From Lama guanicoe (Eukaryota), in the NCBI GenBank assembly GCA_013239625.1, contig MU053823.1:813565-850528 (forward strand): a stretch of DNA of 36,964 nt, written 5' to 3'. Below are positions 1 through 36,840 of this stretch, piece after piece. The position numbers and the translations under genes were made by a program. The notes beneath the pieces were generated by a model. That model saw only the letters and a program-made list of their open reading frames with translations. It was not told the DNA's origin and did no database searches. Numbering within the stretch: position 1 is the first letter of the stretch; the number at the start of each line of letters is the position of its first letter.

Positions 1-247
1 TCCACGGATATACCAGGAATGGACTTCCTAGCCCAGTCCTGACCTGTGCTCCCCAGGTACTTCTGTCATGTCTAAGATTATGATTTTTAAGACTTTTAGT
101 CTTGGGTCATTGAGATCTTGGAGATCAGAGAAGAGTAGACATTTTTCTTCATGTTCCCCGCATTATGATGTATACTTTCTCCTCCCGCCATACACACATT
201 CCCTCATTATAGTTCACCCGCACCCCAAAGCCCACCATGGAACTTAC

Positions 248-389
248 ATTTCTTTATATGTTGGTCTGTGTCAGATAGAAAGGGCGAAAACATGACAAAG
301 AGAAAAAATACAAAGAACATAGCATACAGGACATAGAGCCAAGGAACAACGTTTGGGAACAGACCGGCCCCCAGGTCAACTTCCGCCAT
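248..389 (-). CDS. Candidate first coding exon of an SRCR-less single-pass membrane protein, paralogous to a WC1-type transmembrane exon (exon 395->248, ATG at 389; gene would continue past the window start)
   Basis: Minus strand reads cctcag|ATCTCG ATG GCG ... AAG AAA T|gtaagt and encodes MAEVDLGAGLFPNVVPWLYVLYAMFFVFFLFVMFSPFLSDTDQHIKK, with a hydrophobic run and a consensus phase-1 donor. Flanking introns align with those of the TM exon at 11459-11596. Confidence 0.55.
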
Positions 390-2682
390 CGAGATCTGAG
401 GACACGGAATTCTCTGCCCCAGCTCGCTCACCTTCTAGGTGACCAGGGCGATGAAGTCACAGCTTCAGGCACAATGGGAGTGATGAAGCTCTGGATGGGG
501 ATTGGCCAAGGCTCGTTCTATAAATGCTGGATGGAAACAGGTACTCTCAGGGAGCTTCACCTCTGCCACAGCTCCATTGAGCCCAGACACTAGATGATCA
601 GGTCAGACTGGCAACGGGGTGGATTTTACTACATGTATTCAGAGTGTGTATCTCACTGCATTGGAACCATATTCATTCACATAATGAAGAAACTATTTCT
701 CTAGACTTCACAGCCCTGCAGCCAGCCGTTTTCAACAGAATGCTGTCTAAGTTGAAGGACCCAAAACAAAGGACAGATTTTCTTTGCCACAGGGAATACT
801 CTGTCCCAGCACCGCTCCCCAGTGCACATAATGATCTCAATTTCTGGTCTGAGCTCAGCCTTCTAGGAGGTGACCGACCAGTGCAGACCCATTGACAAAA
901 TGCTAATGTAGTTCCGTGGTCTTTGTCAGCTTCCAAAACATTTTACATACTATCTTTATGATCCTTTGCACTTCATCTCTATCTGCCATGAGTGTGTGTT
1001 TCCTCTCAAGGTGCACAAACCCCCTACTCCTCACTCAAAACCGCAGAGCAATCACTGACACCACGACCCTGCCTAAGAGAAAAAATGTGTCCAGTGCTCG
1101 GCTGGACAAGAAATATGAGGTTTAAATATTGCTCTGTGGGAGCGTCTCATCCAATTGCGGAAATTAAATTCCAGACAGAAAAGGCCAGGGTCACTGTGGA
1201 TTGTGAAAATCAGGGGGTTCTTATGGAACGTTAGAGAGGAAAAATTATAAGCGAATGGAGCTGAAATAAAATTATCTACTGAGGTCAAGATGACTTCCTG
1301 ATTCTGAGGGATGTAAACAGGAAACCCAGATGTCTAAGTGCCTTTATTAGCTTCATTTTTGATCGAGTCTCAGATATTAAACTTTTTCAACCTATTTTTT
1401 TAAACTTGCCAAGATAAGAATTAATGTTTAAAAGCTGAAACAAACAAACAAAAATGTTCATGCTATTTCACTTTTATCATTGCTAATAACCACACCAGAA
1501 TAAAATCATGACTGTTGTTTTGTTTTGTTTGTGTTGTTTTGTTTTGTGTTGATATCTTCACACAGAAAGGTTCACGTTTTAGGCCAAAACAATACTCATT
1601 AACTCAGGCACACCTTTCTCCTCCCAATAAAGCTTTTTCCTCCTTATGTAGAAATCCGTTCAATTTTATATTCTTTTTTTCATATAAAGTCTGTTTATAA
1701 CCCCTTGTATAGGAAAAAATAAGGAAAATATAATTAAAATAATCATGAGTGGGGAGGTTTTAAAACATATAGTATTTACCTTTATTTTTTTTTTAACAAA
1801 CAGAGGGTTTTAAATCTGATGGTTCATTAAATGATTCAAAATTAATGTAAGTAAATAAAGGAGAAAAACTGGGGGACAAAGATGTTGAAGTAGTATAAGA
1901 AAACAGTATGGCACTAAAAAATGGTTCATTGGAGTCTCTTTAAATTTTACTTTCTTTAGATTTTCCCCAGATTTGTTGAGATATGATTGACATATAGCAT
2001 TGTGTAAGTTTAAGATATACAACATGATGATTTGATACAAGTATATATTGCAAAATGATTACAATAAATTAGTAAACACCTCCATCACCTCATATAATCA
2101 CCTCTTATTTCTCCTTGTGTTGAGAACATTTAAGATCTGCTGTGCTGGCAGTTTTCAAGCACGTAGTATAGTATTGGTAACTATAGTCATCATGCTGGCA
2201 TTAGATTCCCAGAACTTACTCATCTTGCAGCTGGGCGTTCGTGCCCTCTGACCAACACTTCCCCATTCCTCCACTGTCCCAGCTCCTGAGAACTACATTT
2301 ACTCTATTTTTAAGAGTTCCATTTTTTTTTAGATCCCACACGTAAAAAATATCACAAGGTATTTGCCGCTAGCTGTCTGGCTTATTTCGTTTACCATAGT
2401 GCCTTCAGGTTCCATCCATGTTGTCACAAATGGCAGAGATTCCATTTTTTATGGCTAAATAATATTCTATTATATATATATATAATATATATATTCAAAC
2501 CACATTTTATTTATCAATGAACACTTAAATTGTAGATTCCATTTCTTGGCCACTGTGAATACTGCTGCAATGAACATAAGAGTGAAGACATCTCTTTGAG
2601 ATACTGATTTCATTTCCTTTGGGTTGGAAGTTGAATTGCTGGATCATATGGTGGTTTTGTTTTTAATTTTTCGAGGAACCTC

Positions 2683-3585: not shown

Positions 3586-3973
3586 AACCTCCACACTGTT
3601 TCCATAGTGGCTACACCAATGTAACGTTCCCACCAACAGTGCACAAGGGCCCCCTGTTCTCCTCAGCCTTGCTAAAACTTGCCTCTTGTCTGTTTGGTAA
3701 TAGCCACTGTAACAGGTGTGAGAGGATATCTCATTGCGGTTTTGATTTGCATCTGCCTGATGATTCTAGTGATAGTATATTTTCATGTACCTCTTGGCCA
3801 TCGTATGTCTTCTTTGGAGAAATGACCATTCAAATCCTTTGCCCATTTTCTTAATTGGATATTTTTTGCTATTAAATTGTATGAGCTCCCTTATAGAATT
3901 CGGGTATTAACCCCTTATCAGACAGATGGTTTGCAAATATTTTCTCCCACTCCGTAGGTTGCCTTTGCATTTT

Positions 3974-4132
3974 TTTTTAAAGAGTAACTTATTTATTTAT
4001 TTAGGTTTTTTTTGAGGGAGGGGTATAATTAGGTTCATTTATTCATTTAATTTTAGAGGTAGCGCTGGGGATTGAACCCAGGACCCTGTGCATGCTAAGC
4101 ATGCGCTCTACTGCTTGAGCTATACCCTCCCC
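3974..4132 (-). mobile_element. tRNA-derived camelid SINE (Vic-1-like)
   Basis: Reverse complement GGGGAGGGTATAGCTCAAGCAGTAGAGCGCATGCTTAGCATGCACAGGGTCCTGGGTTCAATCCCCAG (A/B boxes), A-rich tail, 14-bp TSD TGCCTTTGCATTTT (3960-3973 / 4133-4146). Confidence 0.9.
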
Positions 4133-7730: not shown

Positions 7731-9326
7731 AAGATTAGGTCAAGTCTGCTAATTACTTACATCTTGCACCAGGCTGTACCCCTTCTTCTCCCCACTTTAA
7801 CACTAAACTTCAGTAAATATTCGCTGCATAAAATAAGCTTTTGATGGGAATGTTTTGAAAAAGGAAGCAGTGGCAAAATGTCCACACATTAGCCAAAATG
7901 GGGCGGAGAGAAAATAGGAGGCATGGGGGTAGAAAAGAGCTTGGGAATTCAAAACACTCTTTCAGGAAGTAGTAGTTAGAAGTACGATGGCCCGAACACA
8001 TCCAAGGTCTATTAGAAATACCGGGGATAGTATACAAAGCTGACGATTCAAACCATTCCATTTCTTATTAGCCAAAGGATCTGAGAACTTGGGCGTGTTA
8101 TATGTCGATGTTGTATGTGTCCCCAGCAGATGTGTGTACTCCAATGATTTTCCCAGGAAGCTCAGAAGATTAGCAAGTGTGACCCTGCTCTGTGTAATAT
8201 GTAACCCTATTGATTGTAACGCAATCGGTAAGATCTTAAGGACCTCATTCTCTTCCCTTTCTACTAATAGGTACACATTAGGATGGGATTTGGGGGTGAA
8301 AGCAGGCACTTTTTTCTTGTAAGGGTTTATCATTTGACTCCTAGCTTGAATCTATAGGGTTTATTTCTTCAAAACAAGTAATTCAGAGATAGTAGACTAG
8401 AGGATAATTTTAGAGAGAGTGTATAACTGCTTATAATAGAACTATTTTCCAAGATACCATGCACCAGTATCTCGTAGGCTGCGAGCTGAGAAGACTGTCC
8501 ACATTCACCATGGCTATGGCATGCTGAGGAACAAGAATGGTCCAACTCCTAGTGAATCATCTCTAACCTTGACCCTCACCCAGCAACCAGCACTCCTCTT
8601 GTTTGCCAGGAGGCAACATAGCTTCTGACCTTCTATAACCACAGGAAGTGAGAACAGGGAACCAAAATTTGTTTTCCCAACTAAAATCTGATGATACTAT
8701 GGGGTAACTTGAATTGATTTACTTTTTAAAATGTCACTGCACATGAAGATATAAGAAATAATCTTCATTTAAATTAACCACTAGCACACATTACGCACTA
8801 TACCCAGTAGCTCAGTCATGAGAAGACAGAACTGGGTTTGAAAATAAGTTGAAGGTAAAGAATCTTCACAACCAAAGTTACAAAGTTGACAGAAAAAACA
8901 TTCTGCTTCTGTACTTTCCTATTCCAGTTATGCCTCTGAGAAGTTTTTAGATTGATTTTCGCTAGGAAAGTTCTGCTGCACCTACATCTACCTCCATGAA
9001 ATCAAATCCCAGACTCTAGGGGGAGGGGCCAAAATTATGCAAGAAAAGACAATGTAATTAGGATCGAACATTCCTAGAATATTCAAGTGTTCTTACTATG
9101 AGGTCATCTTGGGAGAAGACAGACCTCAACTCTGGATCTGGATTCAGCTTCTCTCCCCAGTCTGACCATTGATCACTTAACTAGGGTTTCACTCTGGAGA
9201 AGAAAATATATGTTTGGATCTAAGTGGCTAGGGTATGACTACTGTAAAAGCAGTTTGTGTCAAAAGTCTCTAGATGTTCATAAAACTTTCTCAATAACAC
9301 AGAACTGCTCTGAAAGGACCAAAATA

Positions 9327-9332
9327 TTTATT
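9327..9332 (-). terminator. Polyadenylation signal AATAAA of the minus-strand WC1-like remnant
   Basis: TTTATT on + strand, about 110 nt 3' of the TGA at 9440-9442. Confidence 0.5.
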
Positions 9333-9439
9333 ATTGAACAATCTATGTGAAAACGGAACACAAATCAGCATTATTCTTTCTGGACATAGACAGCGACATT
9401 TTCTGAGCCTCTAGTCTGGACTAAAATGCAATAGGAGTT

Positions 9440-9576
9440 TCAATAGGTGCATATTTCTTCTTCAGTTGAAATTCCACTGCCTCCAAGCTCAGCATCCTCA
9501 CATCCAAGCTCATATTCTTCAGTCAAGAGCTTCTCCTTTTCCAGATCTTCTTTCCTGGAGGAATGTGAAAACCAAC
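9440..9576 (-). pseudogene. Terminal cytoplasmic exon of a WC1/SCART-like gene remnant
   Basis: Acceptor tttgctgttgcag|GT, phase 1. Encodes (G)WFSHSSRKEDLEKEKLLTEEYELGCEDAELGGSGISTEEEICTY*, resembling the recalled WC1 last exon (GSFLNFSRE...GYDDVELSALGTS). Confidence 0.65.
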
Positions 9577-9970
9577 CTGCAACAGCAAATTTAGGGCCTC
9601 ATTATGATTATGACTTGGAGACTAAACAGAGCCCTCTAGAGGCATCAGAGTCATGGGCCAGGTGAAAACAGCATTCCTGGAGACTCAGATTGAAAACATT
9701 TCTGCCCGAAATAAAGCACACCAGGAAAAGCATATTAGATACAAACTGTTGATCTCAGATCACCGTCTAGGAAGTACCTGTAACAGAGACTAAAAACTTC
9801 TATGACATCTATACAAACAGTAGGTACATGAAACCAGAGAAAGGAATTGTGAGCATCTGACTTTTCCCAGTAAGACTGGACTAAATCAGAGGAATTTGGT
9901 GATAGGAAGGTACAACTTCATTACCATCTATTCCATAAGGACACTTAGGGACCAGATCCTGATTTCCCAA

Positions 9971-10102
9971 ATGTCTGCAAGGATAATCCCAGCCTTTTCT
10001 CAAAGTCCTCCAAGGCTTCAGCTGCTTTGGTTTCTCTCCTCCCAAGGGACCCCACTGCCCTCCCACAGCCATGATAAAGATGGTTTATTGGGCCCTCCAG
10101 CT
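9971..10102 (-). pseudogene. Middle cytoplasmic exon remnant (donor lost)
   Basis: Acceptor aatttcag|AG. Reads ELEGPINHLYHG...EDFEKRLGLSLQT, resembling WC1 ...NYDDAE...EKEDGVRSSQT(G). The expected G|GT donor is T|TT. Confidence 0.5.
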
Positions 10103-10118
10103 CTGAAATTCTGTGGGT

Positions 10119-10276
10119 CATAGCCAGCTTTGTGAACATGCAACTTACGCTCAGCAGAGCCCTGTGCTTGGTTTAAAGTTCTGCTGTCACCATCTTCAAC
10201 CTCTAAATAATTTTTCAACAAGGAATCCCACATTCTCATTTTACATTGGACCCTGAAAGTTATGAAATCAGTCCTG
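10119..10276 (+). mobile_element. MER45A-like hAT-Tip100 DNA transposon fossil
   Basis: gcttggtttaaagttctgctgtcaccatcttc..aataatttttcaacaagg..cattctcattttacattggaccctgaaagttatg..gtcctg matches the recalled MER45A consensus. Confidence 0.7.
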
Positions 10277-10789
10277 CCATGGATCTTAAGGAAATATGGA
10301 GTGAGTCTCACCTTTTACCCAAAGTTTGCCTCCATGAAAGCACACTTATTAGAGTAACCTTAACATTTTAGTAGCTATGGAGTATCACAATGTGTCTTAA
10401 TATCTATGCTTTGCCATTTTAACTGTATCTCTCACTTGGTCGCATTTTGAATTAACCGAAAGAAATCTTTAGATAATCTATGTGATTGTTGTGATTGAGA
10501 AAATATGTCACAGCATCAAACAATACACTCATGGCTGTAACGGCAGGAAGGTACCTGCTATGAAGTCTGATCTATTCCCATCCTCCCTAAAGATATATGG
10601 AAATAACTGAAATGACTTGGGAAGCCAATTCTAGTCATAATTAAGAAATACGGGCCAACCCACATCTTGTCTCTACAGGAAAGATTGACAGTTAGGGGCT
10701 CAAAGGCATCTTCTGAGAAAGTAAGACTATGTAAGATGTCAGGCTTCCCTTTTACTTGTCCCTAAGGGAATCTTTTCTGGACAACAGAA

Positions 10790-10870
10790 TTTGGCGGCGG
10801 GTTGTGAGGGGGTGGGGCCTGGTGCAAAATAAAATGCAGACCCTCTTATTCCAAAACTATCAAAAGGTTC
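10790..10870 (-). mobile_element. MER45-family fragment
   Basis: ggggcctggtgcaaaataaaatgcagaccctcttattccaaaa is the reverse complement of the MER45 3' motif. Confidence 0.45.
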
Positions 10871-10985
10871 TGAGGTGGGACTCAGGGAAGCCATGTGTAG
10901 ACGCTGTGCCCACAGATGCTGTGAATCACTCCAGGTGATAGTGTATGTTCCAAAGAGCACGCTTGGGAGGGTGAGGGACATCCAC

Positions 10986-11092
10986 CTGACTCCAGCTGTC
11001 TCTCCTCCCCAGTCTCACATTCCTCATCGATATCCTCGTGTACAACCTCACACAGACAGTATTTACATGCGGACAAGATTGATACCAAGGTT
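10986..11092 (-). pseudogene. First cytoplasmic exon remnant (YEEL-motif exon), 107 nt, frameshifted
   Basis: ctcag|...TCA G|gtggat. Homologous frame reads ILSACKYCLCEVVHEDIDEECETGEERQLESG versus WC1 ALSSYEDALAEAVYEELD. Length is not a multiple of 3. Confidence 0.6.
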
Positions 11093-11458
11093 CTGAGTCA
11101 GAAACTCATCTTGAAACACCTGCACATGGAGCCACCTTTGAAGTCTGGGGCTGCTCTCAGCTCATCAGAACCACTAACTTCTTCATGTCTTATCCTTCAA
11201 CCCAGAATTCCAGGCCCAGTCCTAACTTGTGTCTCTATAACTGATGCTAAACTTACTGCTGTTCTGTATGATGCCATGTTTCCTTAGCACTCCTAGTTCA
11301 AGATCACAGAGACTTAAGAATCCAAAGAAGCACAGGTATCATTTTCCAGAAAAAAGTAATAAGGACAAGGTGCATATTCAGTATCCCACATCACAGTGTG
11401 TCCCTCCTCATCCATTGCCCACAGCTCTCCTCATCCTCATCTCCATTTTGGAGCCTAC

Positions 11459-11596
11459 CTTCACACTTTGTTTTCTTTCTGCACTGCTTTATCGCCAGGA
11501 AAATGAAAAAAAGAAAGATGCAGGGTGCCAGGGTGCAACCAAGGATGACTGTCACAAAGATGATCCCAGGGCCAGTGTGGGAGCCTGAATGGTCTC
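11459..11596 (-). pseudogene. Intact WC1-like transmembrane exon (138 nt, phase 1-1) of the minus-strand remnant
   Basis: tttttttag|GA GAC ... TGT GAA G|gtaggc. Encodes GDHSGSHTGPGIIFVTVILGCTLAPCIFLFFIFLAIKQCRKKTKCE (hydrophobic helix plus basic stop-transfer; cf. WC1 PGIFSLPGVLCLILGSLLFLVLVILVTQLLRWRAE). Confidence 0.75.
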
Positions 11597-11732
11597 CTAA
11601 AAAAAAATATCCTCAGGGTGGGAAAGGACATGGGGGGATCCTGCCCCTTACTGTCACCTGCTGAGTGCCCAGAGTGATGAGGTCACAGCTTAAGACACAA
11701 TGGGAGATAGTGAGAGCCTGTCAGGGACTGAC

Positions 11733-12874: not shown

Positions 12875-12951
12875 ATAGCTTATCCTCAAAGATCCCAAAA
12901 CAAATTCTCCTTTACAGAGTTTCAGTCCAGAGCCCAGACCTCTCTACTCAC

Positions 12952-13106
12952 CAGGGCACTTCACTCCAGCATCCTCTTTTCCCTTGTGTTCTTGCAGTGA
13001 CTGCAAGCTCTGGGCCTGTGGTGGGGACCATCTCTGCACCTGCTCTGCACCTTGACCAGCCAGGTGCTCCCATGTCCTAGGCCAAAGGCAGCCTCCCCAG
13101 GCAACC
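12952..13106 (-). pseudogene. 3' half of a degenerate SRCR d'-type exon
   Basis: PGEAAFGLGHGSTWLVKVQS (cf. AAFGPGNGSIWLDEVQC), then after a frameshift EDAGVKCP G|gtgagt. The 5' half of the exon is absent. Confidence 0.75.
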
Positions 13107-24125: not shown

Positions 24126-24494
<369 letters not shown>

Positions 24495-25676
24495 TGAGAG
24501 GATGGAAAGTTCCAAGAAAGCTGGTGTCTAATCACCCGGGCAATAGGAGATGGATGGGCTAGAGAGGTCTCAGACATCTCCCCATGCTCCCTGAGTGCAC
24601 AGAGTATCTGTGAATGATGGCTTCATTTACTTTCCTCTTAAAAGTCTCTCCTATTCTTTTCTTCTCCAATGGTCTTACCTGACATAGTTTAATCTATTGA
24701 CCTACTTAAGATTAATCTTCATAATTTTTTTATATTTCATTTTTTGAAAGAGTGAAACCTTTGCAACTCACTACACATACACACTCCCTTTGCACGGTGA
24801 GCCTGTCGGAGGGAGGGGCAAGAATGTAGATGCACTTTCTGTGGTCGAGTTGTTTCTGTATGAATAGTGCGAGACACTATTTTGCACTAGGTTAGTGGCT
24901 GTGGGGGCAGAGGGGATATTATTAAACAAATTAGAGAGAAATTTGTGGCCAATATGTGCCAAATTTCAAGTCTCCTTTGCAAATTTAGACATAAACATTC
25001 ATAGCTCTTGGGCAGGTAGGAGCAGAGAACTGTGGATGAGATGTTCTGAGTCACAGGTTCCCCTTCTATTGTTACTAGAGAAGACTCTCTCTCCATTTTT
25101 TTCTTTTAAGACATCTGTATAAACTCAAACTTTGGAGGAACACTTAGCCATGCACTGACAAGCTAGTGGTGGAGGCAATGAAATATTAATGTCACCCAGT
25201 AAGTGGGTGTTATCTGTGGTGAGCCCAGATTTACTTCAGATGACAACATCTATCAACTGACTGGATCATTTAAACTTCATGTTTCACTAAACACCAGTCC
25301 TGCAGGGATATTACAATGTCCTTACCAAATCGTAGACCAGTGAAAAGATTACTGTCACGTTGTAGAGGCGAATGACTTTAGTCAACATGGAAAAGTGGGG
25401 TCATGTGAGATGGCACGCAGAAAAATTTTATGTCAGTGAGAAAGCCCTAGAATGAATCTTCTTCACAATCAACTCTATTTTTCACACAACATCTGTATTC
25501 ATTATTTTCTCTCAAAGTCTTATGCTACACTTCTGATACGCATATATTTAACTACATAAAATTTAGTTTGGAGATTGATAGCAAGTAAAGATTTGATTTG
25601 ATTGTTTTTAAAAGTTTTCCAGCACTATTTTTTGAATAATCTATCTTTTCTAATGATTTAAAATATTACCTTCCTT

Positions 25677-25826: not shown

Positions 25827-28029
25827 AACTATTACCCTCCTCCAATACGATATTTCTACATATGTGTGTACGTGTGTCTTTGAGTCTATGAGATATTTAT
25901 ATTCTGCCCCAACCACTCTAGTTTATTGTTACACAAGAACATAACTGGTGTTATTACATTTAATACTTTATCCCCTTATCACATCAGCCTTCTATTTCAT
26001 AAATTTTCTTGCAGTTTTCACACACTCATTCTTCCACGTAAATTCTAAAATCAAGTAGAAAATAAAAAAGAAATAGTAATTTGTCTCAGAAGACTCTACC
26101 CTGATGTATATAAGACTTTATTGATAATTCAAAACATATTTGGGTATCTAACATGTGTCAGGCTACATAAAACAGTATACAAGAAATATTTCTTGCTCAT
26201 CATTTCTAAATTTGTAATCTCACGGAATTTATCTGTTACATAAAAAAATGCTTTAATTAGAGTGAGTAGCTTATGACCAAACTCCCAACCAAACCAGAAT
26301 AAAGGTCCCAGCCTGAGCCTCTCTGGGGAGAGGGAAATGGACAAATAATAAAGGACAAGCATGTTTTCTCTCACATTCGTTCCTGTATAAGTGGTCAAGC
26401 CACTCCTTCAGTTGTTTAATTTCTGTGGTGTCCTTGCTGCTCTCCCCCACTCTCTGTAGTGGGATGTTTATCCTGTTAGGACATTCCTTCTGAAACTCCA
26501 TAACATATGCTTCAAAGTTCACATTCTTATGTAATCGGAGTCCTTTACCAGAAAGAAGTCCACCGTGCACATAAACAACCATGAACACACTCAAAAGCCA
26601 GGCAAGCGTATTAAAATTGTTCTTTATGATTTGGGGGTCTTAATATTTTTCTTTGGATTATTTTCTCTCTATCTAAAATATGGTCCCTGGAGGACCAAAT
26701 CACGATCATGAGCCTTTTCTTTGGTCTCCCTCTTTCAATTTCATACTCCATCCACTTCCAACGTAACCTCCCACACACCCTCTCATACTCCACTGCTACA
26801 GAAGCCCTTCCCTTTTGGAGTCTCCTTTCCATGCATTTAAAGTTCTTAAGATTGTTTTTTCTTTCTGCAGTGGGAGAAACGGGAAAAGGTAACAGGGTTA
26901 GGTGGCAGATGGGAGGAGCACAGGGGACAAAATGTGCTAAAAGCTTTTTGGACAAGTATTTTTCCCAAAGTCTTTCTATCTTTCAACCATATTGAGGTTT
27001 TTGCAATTTGAAAGTCTCCAATTTATGTATGGCTTGTTTGCTTTCTGCGTTCTTCCTCTCAATTTCCTTTTATATATCATGCTGGCTTCTTGTCTTAAGA
27101 ATCCAAATAGGAAAGGAATACACAGTTGGCATATAGATAGGATTAAAATACATCAATTACCATCATTCTCTAGTATTTGCTAAGGTTCTCGTGTCTTGGA
27201 AGGAAAATCCCTACTGTGAAGTAATCAGCAATCTGAGCTGTCGCATATACCCCACTGAGAGCTCACTCCCACCTTCACCAATAAATCCTAGGCTTTTAGG
27301 AACAATGACTGGGATCAGCCCCTCCCTCTCTTACGACTCTCTGAGCTTCCTTAATATCCAAACTCATCTGTGGACAACTTCTTTCACAATCAGGTCACCC
27401 AAGAAATTCTTGGAATTCTTCACCATCAAAAATTATGAGAAAAATATGAAATCATAAAGGTAGATATGTTATAATATCAATATTTCTACCCTTGAGCCAT
27501 TAGTCTACAGTTTGGCTTGCATTCACGGATCCAGCCCTCATGATTTTTCCTACCTTCGGTGAGTTGAGTATTGGCTTCCGAGAAAAAACTGGCCATAATT
27601 CAAGCCCCCAAAGCCTCAGGATGGCCTTCTTACCTTGTCTGGCTCATAGGCTTCTAACCTCTTGAATCCCCATGGACTTTTTTCACTCTGGGTTAGTTCG
27701 GCTCTGCACCCAAGTCTGAATGCCCACTACCGTGCAGCTTCCTTGGGCCCTGTAGTTTCCAGGCCCCGACTTAAGGAATTCACATTTCTAACCAATCTCA
27801 AGATACACATTCTTGGAAATCAACCATTCCACACAGATCCTGCAAATCCTTCTGAATTTCTCTTCAGAAATTTGCTCATGAAAATGCAGTTATAACACTG
27901 TCAAATTCTCTCCCCATGCCCCACTCCTGGAAAAGAAAAGCTTTCACCCCATTGCCTGTGACATGTTGTTTCTATTTGCCAAGCCAGGTTTATGAACATT
28001 CACTGAGTTTGTTTGCTTGTTTCTCTTAG

Positions 28030-28338
28030 GATTTGTGCGTCTGGTTGGAGGGCACGGACCCTGCTCAGGGCAAGTAGAAGTGCGTTCTGAAGAAGACTGG
28101 ACTCCAGTGTCTGACGGAAACTTTACATTCCTCACAGCCCAGGTTATCTGTGCAGAGCTGGGCTGTGGCAAGGCTGTGTCTGTCCTGGGACATGTGCCAT
28201 TCAGAAGGTCAGGTGGTCAGATCTGGGCTGAGGAGTTCAGGTGTACTGGGGAGGAGCCTGAGCTCTGGTTCTGCCCCAGGGTGCCCTGTCCAGGAGGAAC
28301 CTGCCGCCACAGTGGAGCTGTTCAAGTTGTCTGTTCAG
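28030..28338 (+). CDS. WC1: SRCR domain exon, b-type
   Basis: cttag|GA TTT...TCA G|gtgaga, 309 nt. GFVRLVGGHGPCSGQVEVRSEEDWTPVSDGNF...CPRVPCPGGTCRHSGAVQVVCS, typical WC1 b domain. Confidence 0.93.
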
Positions 28339-28430
28339 GTGAGATGCGGATCAGGACTCTAACCTCCCTGCACACCCTGGTCAGGTAAGAAAAACATGAG
28401 ATTTTGCTGAGCTCCTGTCTTTTCTACCAG

Positions 28431-28748
28431 CATACACAGAAGTGCGGCTCATGAACAACAGCACGTCTCAGTGTGAGGGACAAGTGCAGATGCATATTTC
28501 TGGAGGATGGAGAGCGCTCTGTGCCTCCCACTGGACCATGGTCAACGCCCATGTTGTCTGTCGTCAGCTCGGCTGTGGAGTCGCCACCTCCACCCCCAGA
28601 GGACCATACTTTGTTAAAGGAAGCAATCCGATCTGGAAAGCCCGATTTCACTGCTCGGGGGCTGAGTCCTTCTTGTGGAATTGCCCTGTGACTACCCTGG
28701 GTGCTCCTGACTGTGCCCACGGAAACACAGCCTCTGTGATCTGCTCAG
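28431..28748 (+). CDS. WC1: SRCR domain exon, c-type
   Basis: ctaccag|CA TAC...TCA G|gtgaga, 318 nt. AYTEVRLMNNSTSQCEGQVQMHISGGWRALCASHW...DCAHGNTASVICS. Confidence 0.93.
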
Positions 28749-28870
28749 GTGAGAGAGAGGGAGGGGCTGACTGGTACTCAGGATGCTCCTTGTGTGAAAT
28801 GTCCCCAAGAGCAGAGAGTGAGGGAAAACTGACTTCAAACATAAGATTTTCATGGTGAAATGTTTATTCT

Positions 28871-31974: not shown

Positions 31975-32620
<646 letters not shown>

Positions 32621-32721: not shown

Positions 32722-33244
32722 TGTACTAGTTTCCGTTTGCTTCTCTAACAAATTACTACAGTGTTTAAAAGAACATATATTTATTGCCTTTCAGTTCTGT
32801 AGTTTAGTTGTCCAACAGGGATCTCCCTGGGCTAAAGCCAAGTTTTCAACAGGGCCACATGACTTCTGAGGCTCTGGGGAAGAATCCATATCCTGTCTTT
32901 CCAAGCTTTTAGAAACTACCTGCGTTCTTTGGCTCAGAGCTCCATTCATCTAACATCAGATCAGCAAAACTGCATGTCTCTAACCATTATCTATAGTCAC
33001 ATCACTCTGCAATCAGAGCCAGTAAAAGTATTCCACTTCTAATGATAGTAGGTCTAGGAGTGTGATTAGACTGGGCTCACATGTTTAATCCACAATGTTC
33101 CAGCTTAATCTGACCATCCCATGGTCCTTGACTTAATCATATGTGTAAAATCCCTTTTGCCAAATAAGGTAGCATTTTCAGATTGCAGGGACTGGGATGC
33201 GGACGTCTCTGGGGGAGTCCACCCTTCTGCCTGCCTCCCTACTA
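32722..33244 (-). mobile_element. MaLR solo LTR (MLT1D-like)
   Basis: tgtactagtttcc..aacaaattac..cagttctgtag..ctgggctaaa..gaggctctggggaagaatcc..tgattagactgggctcac..aaaatcccttttgcca. Confidence 0.75.
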
Positions 33245-33442
33245 TCCACATCCCTTTCACATACTCTTCCACGGGTTTTTCAGGAAGTGGGATTCAGCTC
33301 CAATATGGTAGCATTTTCACAGGTTCCAGGGACTGGGATGTGGACGTCTCTTGGGGGGTCCACCCTTCTGCCTGCCTCCCTAGTATCCACATCCCTTTCA
33401 CATACTCTTCCACGGGTTTTTCAGGAAGTGGGATTCAGCTCC
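33160..33442. repeat. Tandem duplication, about 140-bp unit, two copies
   Basis: ggtagcattttca...caggaagtgggattcagctcc at 33168-33301 and 33307-33442, few mismatches. Confidence 0.95.
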
Positions 33443-33617: not shown

Positions 33618-33863
33618 TTTCTGGGAGAGAGGAACACCCAGATCTTTGAGTGGAGTGTCAACTGTGCCCTGTTTCCCCCTTTCAATTTTAGAGTTCCTGG
33701 CCCTGAGGATGGTGAGCGAGGACCAGGAGTGTGCCGGGTGAATTTCTGTGAGAGGAGCACCCAGATCGTTGAGTGGAGTGTCAACTGTGCCCTGTCTCCC
33801 CCTTTCAATTTTAGAGTTCCTGGCCCTGAGGATGGTGAGCGAGGACCAGGAGTGTGCTGGGTG
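33618..33863. repeat. Tandem duplication, about 123-bp unit, two copies, spanning the e-exon acceptor
   Basis: tttctg..cacccagatc..caattttag|AGTTCCTGGCCCTGAGG..GGGTG at 33618-33740 and 33743-33863. Confidence 0.95.
33692..33741 (+). pseudogene. Duplicated 5' stub of the e exon ending in a stop codon
   Basis: ttttag|AG TTC...GCC GGG TGA encodes EFLALRMVSEDQECAG*. Confidence 0.85.
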
Positions 33864-33995
33864 GCTGGAAGTCTTCTACAACGGGACTTGGGGCAGAGTG
33901 TCGGAGAACTGATACCTTTCTCTGGGAGTGTCCTTCTGACCCTTGGAAATACGATTCCTGTTCTCCAAAGGAGGAAGCTTACATCTCCTGTGCAG
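33815..33995 (+). pseudogene. WC1: SRCR e-type exon with internal deletion and frameshift (181 nt)
   Basis: EFLALRMVSEDQECAGWLEVFYNGTWG joined out of frame to CRRTDTFLWECPSDPWKYDSCSPKEEAYISCA G|gtgact. In-frame TGA at 33910-33912. Confidence 0.9.
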
Positions 33996-34146
33996 GTGAC
34001 TTACTGCCTGTTTCTATGTGTATGTCCCAACCCTCTAGGATGTTGCTAGTGAGATTTTATATTTTCAAATCTAATTGATGACTTTAAGTTGAATCCACAA
34101 AATGAAATATGGCTGGAGCTAATTTAATCTACATGTGCCAACCTTG

Positions 34147-36840
34147 TTTTTTTTTTTCATTTTTAAACAAGATATAATTGACATAACATTATATTAGTTT
34201 CAGGCTTATAACATAATACTTACATATTTATATATATTGGTATATGATCACCACAATAAGTCTATTAATATCCATTGCCATAAAAAGTTACAATTTTTCC
34301 TTATGCTGAGCACTTTTAAGATGTATTTTCTTATCAACTTTCAAATAGACAACACAGTATTAACTATAGTCACCATGTTGTACATTACATTAGCCATGAT
34401 TTATGAATTTTATAGCTGAAAGTTTATATCTTTTAACCACCTTCACCCACTTTTTGCCCAAACTAACCACCCACCTCTGACAACCATCAAACTGTTCTCT
34501 GCATCATTGAACTTGTTTTTTTGTTATAAGATTCCACATTTAAGTGAGATCATATTGTATTTTTCTTTCCCTATCTAATTTATTTCAGTTAGCATAATGC
34601 CCTCGAGGTCCATCCATGTTGTTGCAAATGGCAAGATTTTCTTCTTTGTTAACTTTTTTATGGTTGGTATACAAATATATATATATATATATATTTTTTT
34701 TTCTTTTTCTTTTAGCCATTCATCCATCAGTGAAGACTTACGTTGCTTGGCTATTGTAAATAATGCTGCAGTGAACTTTGGAATGCATCTTTACAACTTA
34801 ATGTTTTCATTTCCTTTGGATAAATTGCCAGAAGTGAAACTGCTAAATCATAGGGCAGTGCTATTTTTAATTTTTGAGGAACATCAATACTGTTTTCCAT
34901 AGTGGTTGCACCAACTTACGTTCCCCTAGCAGTGCACAGGCCTTCCCTTTTCTCTGCATCCTCACCAACTCTTGCTATTTCATGTCTTTTTGGTAACAGC
35001 CATTTTAGCAGATGTAAGATGGTATCTCATTGTGGTTTTGATTTGCATTTCCCAGTTGAGCACTTTTTCATGCACCTATTGGTCAAGTATATGTTTTCTT
35101 TGAAAAAATATCTATTCAGATCTTCTGCCTATCTTTTAATCAGATTGTTTAGTTTTTTGCTATTGAGCTGTATGAGTTCTTTATACATTTTGGATATTAA
35201 CCTTTATCAAAAATATAATATATTTTCTCCAGTTCTAAAGGTTGCCTTTTCATTCTGTTGATGGTTTCCTTTGCTATGCAGAAGCTTTTTAGTTTTATGT
35301 AGTCCCACTTGCTTATTTTTGTTCTTATTGCCTTTGCTTTTGGTGTCAAATCCAGAAAATCGTCCCCAAGACTGACATCAAAGAGCTTTTTTTTCCTTCT
35401 AAGAGTTTTATGACTTTAGGTCTTTTGATCAAGTCTTTAATCCATTTTGAGTTAATTTTTGTGTATGGTGTAGACAGGGGTCCAGTTTCATTCTTTATCA
35501 TGTAGCTGTCCAATATTCCTGAGACCTTTTATTAAAGAGACTGTCCTTTCTTCACTGTGCATTCTTGTCCTTTGTCAAAAATTAATTGACCATATAAATT
35601 TGAGTTTGTTTTTGGGCTCTCTGTTATGTTCCATTGATCTCTGTGCCCATTTTTATACCAATAGCATGCTCTTTTGGTTGATGTAGTTTTGTAATATAGT
35701 TTGAAATCAGGAAACATGACACCTCCAGCTTTGTTCTTCTTTCTTAAGATTGCTTTGGCTATTTGGGGTCTTTTGTGGTTCCATACAAATTTTAGGATTG
35801 TTTGCCCTGTATCTGTGAAAAATTCCATTGAAATTTTGATAACAATTGCAGTGAATTTGTAGGTTGCTTTGGGTAGTGTGGGCATTTTAACAATATTAGA
35901 TCTCCATAAGCACAAACTATCTTTCCATTTATTTGTATCTTCTTCAATATCTTTCTTCAATGTTTTATAGTTTTCAGTATACAGATCTTTCACCTCCTTG
36001 GTTAAATTTATTCCTAGATATTTTATTCTTTTGGATGCAACTGAAAATAAAATTGTTTTCTTAATTTTTCTTTCTGCCAGTTTGTTGTTACTATATAGAA
36101 ATACAACTGATTTTTGTATATAGATTTTTGCATCCTGCATCTTTCCTAAGTTTATTAGTTCTAACAGTTTTTTGGTGGAGTCTGTAGGGTTTTTTATATA
36201 CAGTATCACATAATCTGCAAATAGTGTCAGTCTGCCTCTTCTTTTCAGATGTGGATGCCCTTATTTTCTTTCTCTCGCCTGATTGCTCTGGCTAAGACTG
36301 CCAAAACTATGTTGAATTAAAGTGGTGAGAGTGGACATCTTTGCCTTGTGTCTGATCTTAGGGGAAAATGTTTGTAGCATTTTATAGGTGAGTATGATGT
36401 TATCTGTAGTTTTGTCATATGGCCTTTATTATATTGAGGTACAATTCTGCTATATCTACTTTGTAGAGAGGTTTTTTAAAATCATAAATGGATATTGAAT
36501 TTTGTCAAATGTTCTTCCTGCATCTAATGAGAGGGTAAGATTTGTACCCCTCATTTTGTTAATTTGGTGTATCACATTGTATTAATTTGTGGTTGTTGAA
36601 CCATCCTTGCATCCTTGGAATAAATCTCACTTGATCATGGTACATGAAGCTTTTAATGTATTGTTGAATTCCATTTTATAATATTTTGTCGAGGATTTTT
36701 GCATCTATATTTATCAGGAATATAACCTGTAATTTTCTTTTCTTGTAGTGTCCTTGTCTGGTTTTGGTATCAGGATAATGATGGCCTTATAAAATGAGTT
36801 TGGAAGTGTTCCTTTCTTCTGTTTTTGGAAGCATTTGAGA
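34147..36840 (-). mobile_element. 5'-truncated L1 (L1MA9-like): polyA, 3'UTR and ORF2 C-terminal part
   Basis: Poly-T at about 34147-34165. ORF 35532-36209 is an L1 ORF2 segment ([14 protein letters not shown]...FKLYYK). Confidence 0.92.

Follow-up and report, generated by a model that had tools for sequence, protein, structure and literature searches.

WC1, for which the name SCARI has been proposed, is a co-receptor of gamma-delta T cells and a group B member among proteins with scavenger receptor cysteine-rich (SRCR) domains, and together with CD163 and the SCART receptors it has been studied as a pattern-recognition co-receptor in gamma-delta T cells and macrophages. In its cytoplasmic tail, the AVYEEI motif contains a tyrosine that is a phosphorylation site needed for WC1 co-stimulation. 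Between 4 and 6 exons are given as encoding the WC1 tails (PMC2681482), and the Discussion of a second paper names the second tail tyrosine as the required one (PMC2906472). Here we describe a locus at which the membrane and tail part of such a receptor gene has probably become a small gene of its own. The window, i.e. the whole stretch of DNA that was analysed, comprises 36,964 nucleotides of Lama guanicoe (contig MU053823.1, here C1746; C1746:813565-850528), and close to its left end the minus strand carries an exon of 148 nt, 395..248, with the transmembrane (TM) segment. An earlier note had proposed that this exon belongs to a "headless" gene derived from a WC1 tail, with an own start codon and no SRCR ectodomain. 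As judged from sequence comparison, the exon is likely to be the first coding exon of an intact gene with three coding exons that derives from a WC1-type receptor tail. This gene is called B below, as distinct from two decayed relatives, A and C, and negative window coordinates denote positions to the left of the window start.

Read on the minus strand, exon 1 is bounded as gtgtcctcag/ATCTCGATGGCGGAA...CATATAAAGAAAT/gtaagt, where slashes mark the splice junctions, and its end reads AAGAAAT/gtaagt. The acceptor CCTCAG lies at 396/395 and the phase-1 donor T/GTAAGT at 248/247. A leader of 6 nt precedes the ATG at 389-387, from which 47 codons are open, and an in-frame TAG is found 15 codons upstream of this ATG. 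Direct reading confirmed the exon anatomy of the earlier note in these points. The encoded peptide begins with a short acidic N-terminus, continues with the TM helix and then has the stop-transfer sequence HIKK; the hydrophobic run, which had been described as intact, reaches a mean Kyte-Doolittle value of 2.37 in its best 21-residue window. Because the orthologous proteins described below are spliced directly after ...KK, we take the donor at 248/247 to be the one in use. Against a hidden Markov model (HMM) of the protein family formed by these orthologues, exon 1 scores with E 1.3e-26.

The earlier note had asked whether in-frame phase-1 cytoplasmic exons lie further left. In the sequence extended 30 kb leftwards of the window, two such exons, a TGA stop and an AATAAA are present, all on the minus strand. 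Exon 2, at -134..-223 (C1746:813430..813341), has 90 nt and runs from phase 1 to phase 1, with the acceptor ttttgccttag and the donor CCAG/gtgagt as read on the DNA. Exon 3, at -2341..-2483 (C1746:811223..811081), follows the acceptor tcttgtttcag and includes the TGA, and the AATAAA is located 97 nt past the stop, at C1746:810983..810978. A 121-amino-acid protein of the bat Molossus molossus, placed on the extended sequence, marks 389..249, -134..-223 and -2343..-2480 on this strand. The spliced open reading frame (ORF) of gene B has 124 codons, remains in frame throughout and has every junction in phase 1, and the family HMM matches exons 2 and 3 with E 3.3e-11 and 4.1e-19.

The bat protein, an uncharacterized entry spliced after ...KK, is one of four relatives that a word search with the exon-1 peptide retrieved. 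A phmmer search with it against 1.84 billion representative proteins gave 14 matches with E <= 1e-3, all 63-123 amino acids long except one 254-amino-acid repeat protein that resembles noise, and none of them with an SRCR domain. The family spans the genera Callorhinus, Mirounga, Mustela, Ailuropoda, Nyctereutes, Molossus, Catagonus, Muntiacus (two species), Prolemur and Grammomys, with models from RefSeq, Ensembl/UniProt and GenBank (for example Callorhinus ursinus XP_025718540.1, Mustela M3YZ87, Ailuropoda A0A7N5JBN1, Molossus A0A7J8FZ22 and Grammomys XP_028610199.1), and several additional matches are unspliced ORFs of assembled reads. A match to an already named, unrelated gene, which would have spoken against the proposal, did not turn up: the records are called "uncharacterized protein LOC112816309" (northern fur seal, two isoforms), "uncharacterized protein LOC114609965" (Grammomys) or plainly uncharacterized or hypothetical (elephant seal, ferret, giant panda, raccoon dog, peccary, muntjacs, Prolemur and bat). 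No Pfam family matched the exon-1 peptide or the four relatives, the SRCR domain (PF00530) included.

The conservation of the start codon and of the frame, both named in the earlier note as points on which the proposal could fail, speaks for the gene. A methionine stands at the homologous position in 18 of 18 exon-1 sequences, the window included, with the restriction that in 5 of these the ORF caller by construction starts at this methionine. Six full-length orthologues can be aligned with the window ORF from end to end, and the gaps among these seven sequences are whole codons only, i.e. one residue found only in the window copy and the rodent, and short gaps in the tails of bat and rodent. 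Four of the six orthologues stop at the same place (...PGPSV), and bat and rodent end in the related ...SV/...PV. Towards five carnivore and bat sequences, the window copy shares 35-37 of 47 residues in exon 1, 17-24 of 30 in exon 2 and 27-30 of 44-46 in exon 3. The window ORF has the features of the family, namely three coding exons, a length of about 120 amino acids, a start with Met-Ala-Glu, the unchanged TM core FVFFLFVMFSP and the stop after ...PGPSV. Between elephant seal and lemur all 47 residues of the exon-1 peptide are identical, and the TM segment appears to be under very strong constraint. Judged by its distribution, the gene would be at least as old as the ancestor that carnivores, bats, artiodactyls, primates and rodents have in common.

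Some of the database models depart from this pattern. Isoform X2 of the fur seal skips the TM exon; it begins with two residues from outside exons 1 and 2, which is why we assume a 5' exon in this species, and goes on with exon 2. In the lemur and the peccary the models run on into intron 2, and that of the raccoon dog links exon 2 with another stretch ahead of the common C-terminus. Either alternative splicing at the locus or uncertainty of the models may account for these differences. In metagenome contigs, 592 stretches matched the patterns of an orthologue search and tblastn confirmed none of them; a degenerate DNA pattern picked out one contig that is G+C-rich and unrelated by eye, which we discarded as a chance match.

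The absence of an ectodomain was the second element of the earlier proposal, which saw no SRCR exon between 395 and the polyadenylation signal at 9327. This observation stands. Between 395 and 9327 on the minus strand, the best match of a protein HMM of 11 SRCR exons from the contig had E 0.59, and a DNA profile of 12 such exons found only 812-785 (E 0.47 in 67 kb); from 395 to 24000 the same strand holds no SRCR exon except the remnant that belongs to A. The match at 812-785 covers profile positions 209-236 and reaches E 0.014 when the search is confined to the 3.9 kb upstream of B and C, and profile positions 172-216 match at 1006-962 with E 0.33. These sub-threshold matches within 785..1006 (minus strand) are suggestive of a scar of the last SRCR exon.

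A different reading holds that the gene is not headless at all, and that the three exons form the 3' end of a longer receptor gene with its SRCR exons far upstream on the minus strand, the short database models being truncated. In a Pfam SRCR scan of the 2.05-Gb assembly, minus-strand SRCR exons on C1746 were indeed found, only from 866751 onwards, 53 kb upstream of exon 395..248; moreover, with a CCTCAG acceptor at 396/395 some exon is to be expected upstream, and fur-seal isoform X2 points to a 5' exon. Entry in phase 1, as the exons of the SRCR family join, nevertheless meets a TGA after 6 codons of exon 1 (by eye), as had been predicted. Furthermore, the decayed end of A with its own polyadenylation signal and a plus-strand WC1-type gene intervene, and all independent annotations begin at the same methionine. 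Neither HMMER in the 1.84 billion representatives nor the word search found a protein of more than 123 amino acids with this TM segment or tail, a result that isoforms hidden within clusters could escape. We consider a longer receptor gene highly improbable and return to the headless gene, for which an origin has to be given.

Three related units are found on the minus strand: the small gene B, unit A at 9.2-13.1 kb, and unit C, 5.7 kb to the left of B. They can be compared with two WC1-type genes that lie tail to tail within 10 kb in C1746:856300-866299, with TM exons at local positions 555-872 (+) and 9690-9439 (-) and terminal exons near 3879-3995 (+) and 6941-6669 (-); these intact TM exons are 43 to 52 kb to the right of exon 395..248, beyond the window edge. 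Unit A represents the decayed 3' end of a WC1-type gene. The earlier note had used its TM exon as the WC1-type reference, and this is refined here insofar as A is itself a pseudogene. Its TM exon (11459..11596, minus strand, 138 nt, phase 1 to 1) is still open and has good splice sites, and it forms the bridge between B and the intact WC1-type genes; no database homologue of it was found. Upstream lies half an SRCR exon (12943..13099, minus strand), which is decayed and frameshifted: nhmmer aligns it to profile positions 151-313 with E 7.2e-7, the protein HMM gives two sub-threshold matches in two frames, and blastn aligns 35 nt of it at 88.6% identity with the end of the last SRCR exon in the plus-strand WC1-type gene. 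The decayed tail of A (9234..11124, minus strand) consists of an exon-2 equivalent at 11124-10920, in which the acceptor is gone and a TAA is present, and an exon-3 equivalent with the polyadenylation region at about 9560-9234.

B and A are colinear in three places, the intron before the TM exon, exon 2 and the polyadenylation-signal region. The intron segment upstream of exon 1 (401..523, minus strand) is conserved with A and C, and the proposed paralogy of the exon flanks is borne out by blastn (428-480 against 11654-11706, 83% over 53 nt, E 1e-9 in 67 kb) and by nhmmer (523-401 against 11749-11627 of A, E 1.9e-10). The exon-2 region of B matches the tail of A with E 2.5e-6 and the exon-3 region with E 0.005, and the polyadenylation-signal regions are 71% identical over 59 nt (E 3.6e-7).

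The connection to the intact WC1-type genes was made exon by exon. A profile of the TM units of A, B and C matches a WC1-type TM exon with E 2.1e-8 in nhmmer, and A used on its own finds the TM exons of the two genes with E 1.1e-11 and 1.1e-8. The exon-3 region of B, used alone, matches the two terminal exons with E 2.6e-7 and 5.1e-5, and a profile of A and B does so with E 1.3e-13 and 4.1e-11. The exon-2 region of B corresponds to the first cytoplasmic exon of the minus-strand WC1-type gene (E 0.0037). In the exon-2 and exon-3 alignments the acceptors coincide base for base, and for exon 2 so does the donor. In addition, a profile of the WC1-type middle tail exon detects a fossil of this exon in intron 2 of B, at -1209..-1351 (E 4.4e-5), with a TGA in the ancestral frame. 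Because of these matches at the DNA level, the order of elements in B, i.e. TM exon, first tail exon, dead middle exon, terminal exon and polyadenylation signal, can be equated with the 3' end of a WC1-type gene; its TM and cytoplasmic exons are homologous to those of such genes and joined in phase 1, with aligned splice sites.

At the protein level the similarity is faint, so that the homology is based on the DNA profiles. BLASTP aligns exon 3 with a WC1-type terminal ORF at the very C-terminus, EPGEYDAEMCSPG-PSV against DPGYDDVELSVPGTPSV, with 9 of 17 residues identical and E 0.013. The ferret protein reaches E 0.094 in BLASTP, window exon 3 gives no alignment with the other terminal ORF, the best match of the family HMM to a WC1-type terminal exon among all ORFs of the region has E 4.2, and hhalign finds nothing between the family and the terminal ORF. 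As to CD163, its TM exon and tail have no detectable similarity to B, A or C, and the TM exons of CD163 and A, when used as protein queries against the whole genome, matched only themselves.

Three changes distinguish the TM exon of B from its presumed ancestor. The ancestral acceptor position has no AG, and the exon now starts at the upstream CCTCAG; the resulting 5' extension contains the ATG, which is common to B and C and not present in A; and the used donor lies 12 nt upstream of the ancestral one. In a six-way MAFFT alignment of TM exons, the GTGGGC donors of A, CD163 and both WC1-type genes fall at 236/235, where B reads CATG/GTGGGC at the end of the 12-nt stretch 236..247 (minus strand), and the TM exon of B is 4 codons shorter than the WC1-type TM exons. 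Taken together, the 3' part of a WC1/CD163c-alpha-type receptor gene would have been the source of gene B. Its TM, first cytoplasmic and terminal cytoplasmic exons would have survived with their phase-1 splice sites and its SRCR exons would have been lost, the middle cytoplasmic exon being left only as the stop-bearing fossil in intron 2, and translation would start at the ATG in the 5' extension of the TM exon. The suggestion that the TM and tail exons of a WC1-type receptor were re-founded as a small single-pass protein devoid of a signal peptide is thereby supported by the exon-by-exon DNA matches.

Unit C (-5972..-5206, minus strand) is a partial tandem duplicate of the small gene. Its segment -4936..-5309 matches 784-404 of B with E 1.4e-25 (nhmmer), and its exon-1-like ORF shares the ATG and is likewise open for 47 codons, with an identity of only about 32%. 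C covers exon 1, exon 2 (family HMM E 0.0077) and part of intron 2, and we regard it as dead because both donors are lost, exon 3 is missing and its ORF has no database homologue. An intron-2 block with the middle-exon fossil is 84% identical between B (about -977..-1615) and C (about -6203..-6833), as compared with 71-74% in neighbouring duplicated blocks, which suggests gene conversion, a younger secondary duplication or constraint. The intron-2 starts of A and C resemble the start of exon 3, and the idea of a retrocopy was considered for this reason and rejected, as it is the same intronic sequence in another frame.

Several observations weigh against gene B as an intact gene of WC1 descent. 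The Kozak context of the ATG at 389-387 is weak, with a T at -3, and the search for an upstream 5' exon ending in ATGG/GTRAGT gave 7 matches, compared with 5.7 expected by chance, of which none is usable. The family models in the databases are automatic predictions. B alone gives no match to the WC1-type TM exons, and the link for this exon therefore runs through pseudogene A. Exons 2 and 3 do not exceed their short flanks in identity (16/29 vs 18/36 and 31/47 vs 10/15). Finally, the window copy is among the most diverged family members: it has 10 differences from the exon-1 consensus, as has the muntjac, with 12 in the rodent and 0-3 in five carnivores, lemur and peccary, and of 31 positions at which the other 11 sequences do not vary, it differs by eye at 5. 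In view of these differences, constraint may have been relaxed in the lineage of the window.

The low contrast between exons 2 and 3 and their flanks would fit a non-coding relic, i.e. a regulatory element or an exon of a long non-coding RNA in the CD163-WC1 interval with an incidental ORF, and so would the conservation among paralogues of the intron segment upstream of exon 1. Such a relic does not explain why the start, two phase-1 junctions and the stop are kept, with whole-codon gaps, in seven full-length sequences from four orders. In a comparison with an unspliced genomic ORF of another species, exon 1 of the window is identical at 37 of 47 positions (79%) with 0 gaps, whereas the upstream flank in the same frame is identical at 53 of 125 (42%) with 23 gap positions, and the window stretch there holds 10 stops. 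Directly past the donor, similarity and register of the unspliced ORFs collapse and indels appear. The coding case for exons 2 and 3 would accordingly be built on the frame, the junctions and the stop that are kept across orders. A non-coding relic is, in our opinion, hardly to be expected here.

The divergence of the window copy speaks for another rival, according to which the gene is real elsewhere in mammals and the locus in the window is drifting towards a pseudogene, with an ORF that is open by luck and little or no expression. The 10 consensus differences, the 5 changed invariant positions, the weak Kozak position and the neighbouring duplicate C, which is already dead, can all be cited in its favour. 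However, all three exons are open, the four splice sites are intact, as are the stop and the AATAAA, and there are 0 frameshifts over 124 codons. The rodent and the muntjac are equally diverged, yet have annotated open models, and the TM core is unchanged. We think that pseudogene drift is unlikely, although less so than the two rivals discussed above, and that an intact three-exon gene B remains the better explanation of the locus.

The product of gene B is predicted to have 124 residues and no signal peptide, with about 13-16 acidic N-terminal residues followed by one Phe-rich TM helix; the cytoplasmic tail of about 75-90 residues is predicted to be mostly disordered. The hydrophobic maximum lies at residues 14-34. 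The ORF begins 13-16 residues before the only hydrophobic segment, and because the helix is longer than 21 residues we interpret this segment as a signal-anchor and not as a cleavable signal. There are 2 acidic and 0 basic residues on the N-terminal side of the helix, and HIKK and more basic residues follow it, a charge distribution that suggests an outer N-terminus and an inner C-terminus. The protein would thus be a signal-anchor protein with a very short outer N-terminus, in the orientation of the parent receptor. An AlphaFold2 model of the fur-seal orthologue, made with an 8-sequence alignment, has a single helix at residues 16-68, and the predicted local distance difference test (pLDDT) values are 70-91 at residues 11-50 and below 50 in the tail. 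As the mean pLDDT is 57.7, only the helix is believable. The juxtamembrane Cys 52 is nearly invariant in the family and may be a palmitoylation site. Neighbours in the ESM Atlas (Nlp36, adipogenin) had scores of at most 0.86 and belong to unrelated families, so they were of no value as leads.

What such a protein might do can be outlined only tentatively. A WC1-like signalling role is unlikely because the AVYEEI tyrosine is replaced (AVRKD). Since constraint is strongest in the TM and juxtamembrane part and the tail lacks the tyrosine of the parent, intramembrane association is the most likely mode, and gene B could encode a small membrane protein that partners or regulates another membrane protein by way of its TM and juxtamembrane helix, a proposal that we put forward with low confidence. 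That it acts by intramembrane association as a regulator, chaperone or assembly decoy, and not by WC1-like signalling, is a possibility to which we would give limited credence, and a role as adaptor or decoy is speculation. Somewhat more doubtful still is a wider scenario of an ancient "beheaded receptor", in which a WC1/CD163c-alpha-type gene beside CD163 lost its ectodomain by the time of the boreoeutherian ancestor, and its TM/tail micro-protein became an obligate partner or regulator of a receptor, possibly of the CD163-family neighbour. Gene B would then be the sole WC1-type remnant in primates and rodents; the small-gene family includes a lemur and a rodent, and a passage in PMC12235456 lists primates and rodents as orders reported to be without WC1 proteins.

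The surroundings of the gene were mapped with the genome-wide Pfam scan. On the plus strand of C1746, nine SRCR exons lie at 779360-796022 and a second group of five at 837741-856377. The left-hand gene is CD163, with nine SRCR exons, of which the fifth scores 212 bits against 5jfb, 5hrj and 6k0l, the single-domain SRCR structures of CD163 (M130), and with its TM exon at window position -16979..-16749. From the placement of the SRCR exons it follows that the small gene is antisense between the 3' end of CD163 and the plus-strand SRCR gene on the right. The latter has tail ORFs with AVYEEI/ALYQEI, GYDD and YDDVEL motifs; labelling it WC1 rather than CD163L1-like is a tentative choice, based in part on the features of WC1 tails. 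Besides these motifs, it was called WC1-type because of the motif distribution given in PMC2906472, where tyrosine-based motifs are described as common to the WC1 and CD163c-alpha tails and not present in those of CD163A and CD163b.

Within the window, this plus-strand WC1-type gene has four intact SRCR exons (24126-24497, 27996-28388, 28400-28858 and 32078-32512, plus strand), and a broken SRCR remnant of its region lies at 33851-33999. The SRCR exons 24165-24477 and 32144-32452, including flanks, are 81% identical over about 500 nt. The stretch at 32-34 kb is markedly G+C-rich (0.556 vs about 0.40), and tandem duplications are found beside the broken SRCR piece, at 33163-33442 (141 nt x 2.0, 93%) and 33627-33863 (123 nt x 1.9, 96%), which give rise to long repeated ORFs. 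A 242-codon open frame on the minus strand at 35532-36260 resembles, by eye, a fragment of LINE-1 ORF2, and further interspersed-repeat matches occur elsewhere in the window. To the right of C1746:856300-866299, two 10000-nt stretches of the contig consist mostly of N (8264 and 6579).

The existence of the gene is not new, as public annotation holds an unnamed model of it. A literature search with the family core peptide, the LOC numbers and the accessions found no paper, and in the literature searched there is no earlier record that identifies it as derived from a WC1-type receptor tail, headless and located beside CD163. If this identity is true, the gene is a clear case in nature of a small membrane protein that arose by truncation of a receptor gene, and it offers a concrete candidate for a TM-level regulator at the CD163/WC1 locus. 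It would also explain an "uncharacterized LOC" model in many mammalian genomes, which annotators should neither merge with a WC1 pseudogene fragment nor discard as one.

In their build, the adaptors DAP10, DAP12, FcR-gamma and CD3-zeta resemble the product of gene B, since they too combine a very short ectodomain, one partnering TM helix and a short tail. This is an analogy only: these adaptors have signal peptides, a charged TM residue and immunoreceptor tyrosine-based activation motifs (ITAMs) or YxxM motifs, none of which is seen in the product of gene B, and there is no sequence relationship. CD163 (M130) and CD163L1 (M160) belong to the same receptor superfamily as the source of gene B, and CD163 is its immediate neighbour; the tails of CD163A and CD163b are described in PMC2906472 as unrelated to those of WC1 and CD163c-alpha. 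The WC1/CD163c-alpha/SCART-type genes have TM, first cytoplasmic and terminal cytoplasmic exons that are homologous to those of gene B at the DNA level, and the chromosomal neighbourhood is common to both. The C-terminal motif is GYDDVELSVPGTPSV in the WC1-type gene of this contig and EYDAEMCSPGPSV in gene B. Unlike these genes, gene B has no signal peptide, SRCR or interdomain exons, its start codon lies inside the TM exon, its donor there is shifted 12 nt upstream, and its middle cytoplasmic exon is dead. HEAVYEEID of the WC1-type gene corresponds to HNAVRKDKE in gene B. The TM segment is fully remodelled relative to WC1, and its conservation between orders is far above that among the receptor TM exons of this contig. 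The LOC112816309-like family, finally, is the same gene as B, with the same methionine, junctions and stop and three coding exons for about 120-124 amino acids; the window copy is set apart by lineage-specific changes in the TM flanks and by a tyrosine (EYD) near the C-terminus, where carnivores have serine or glycine.

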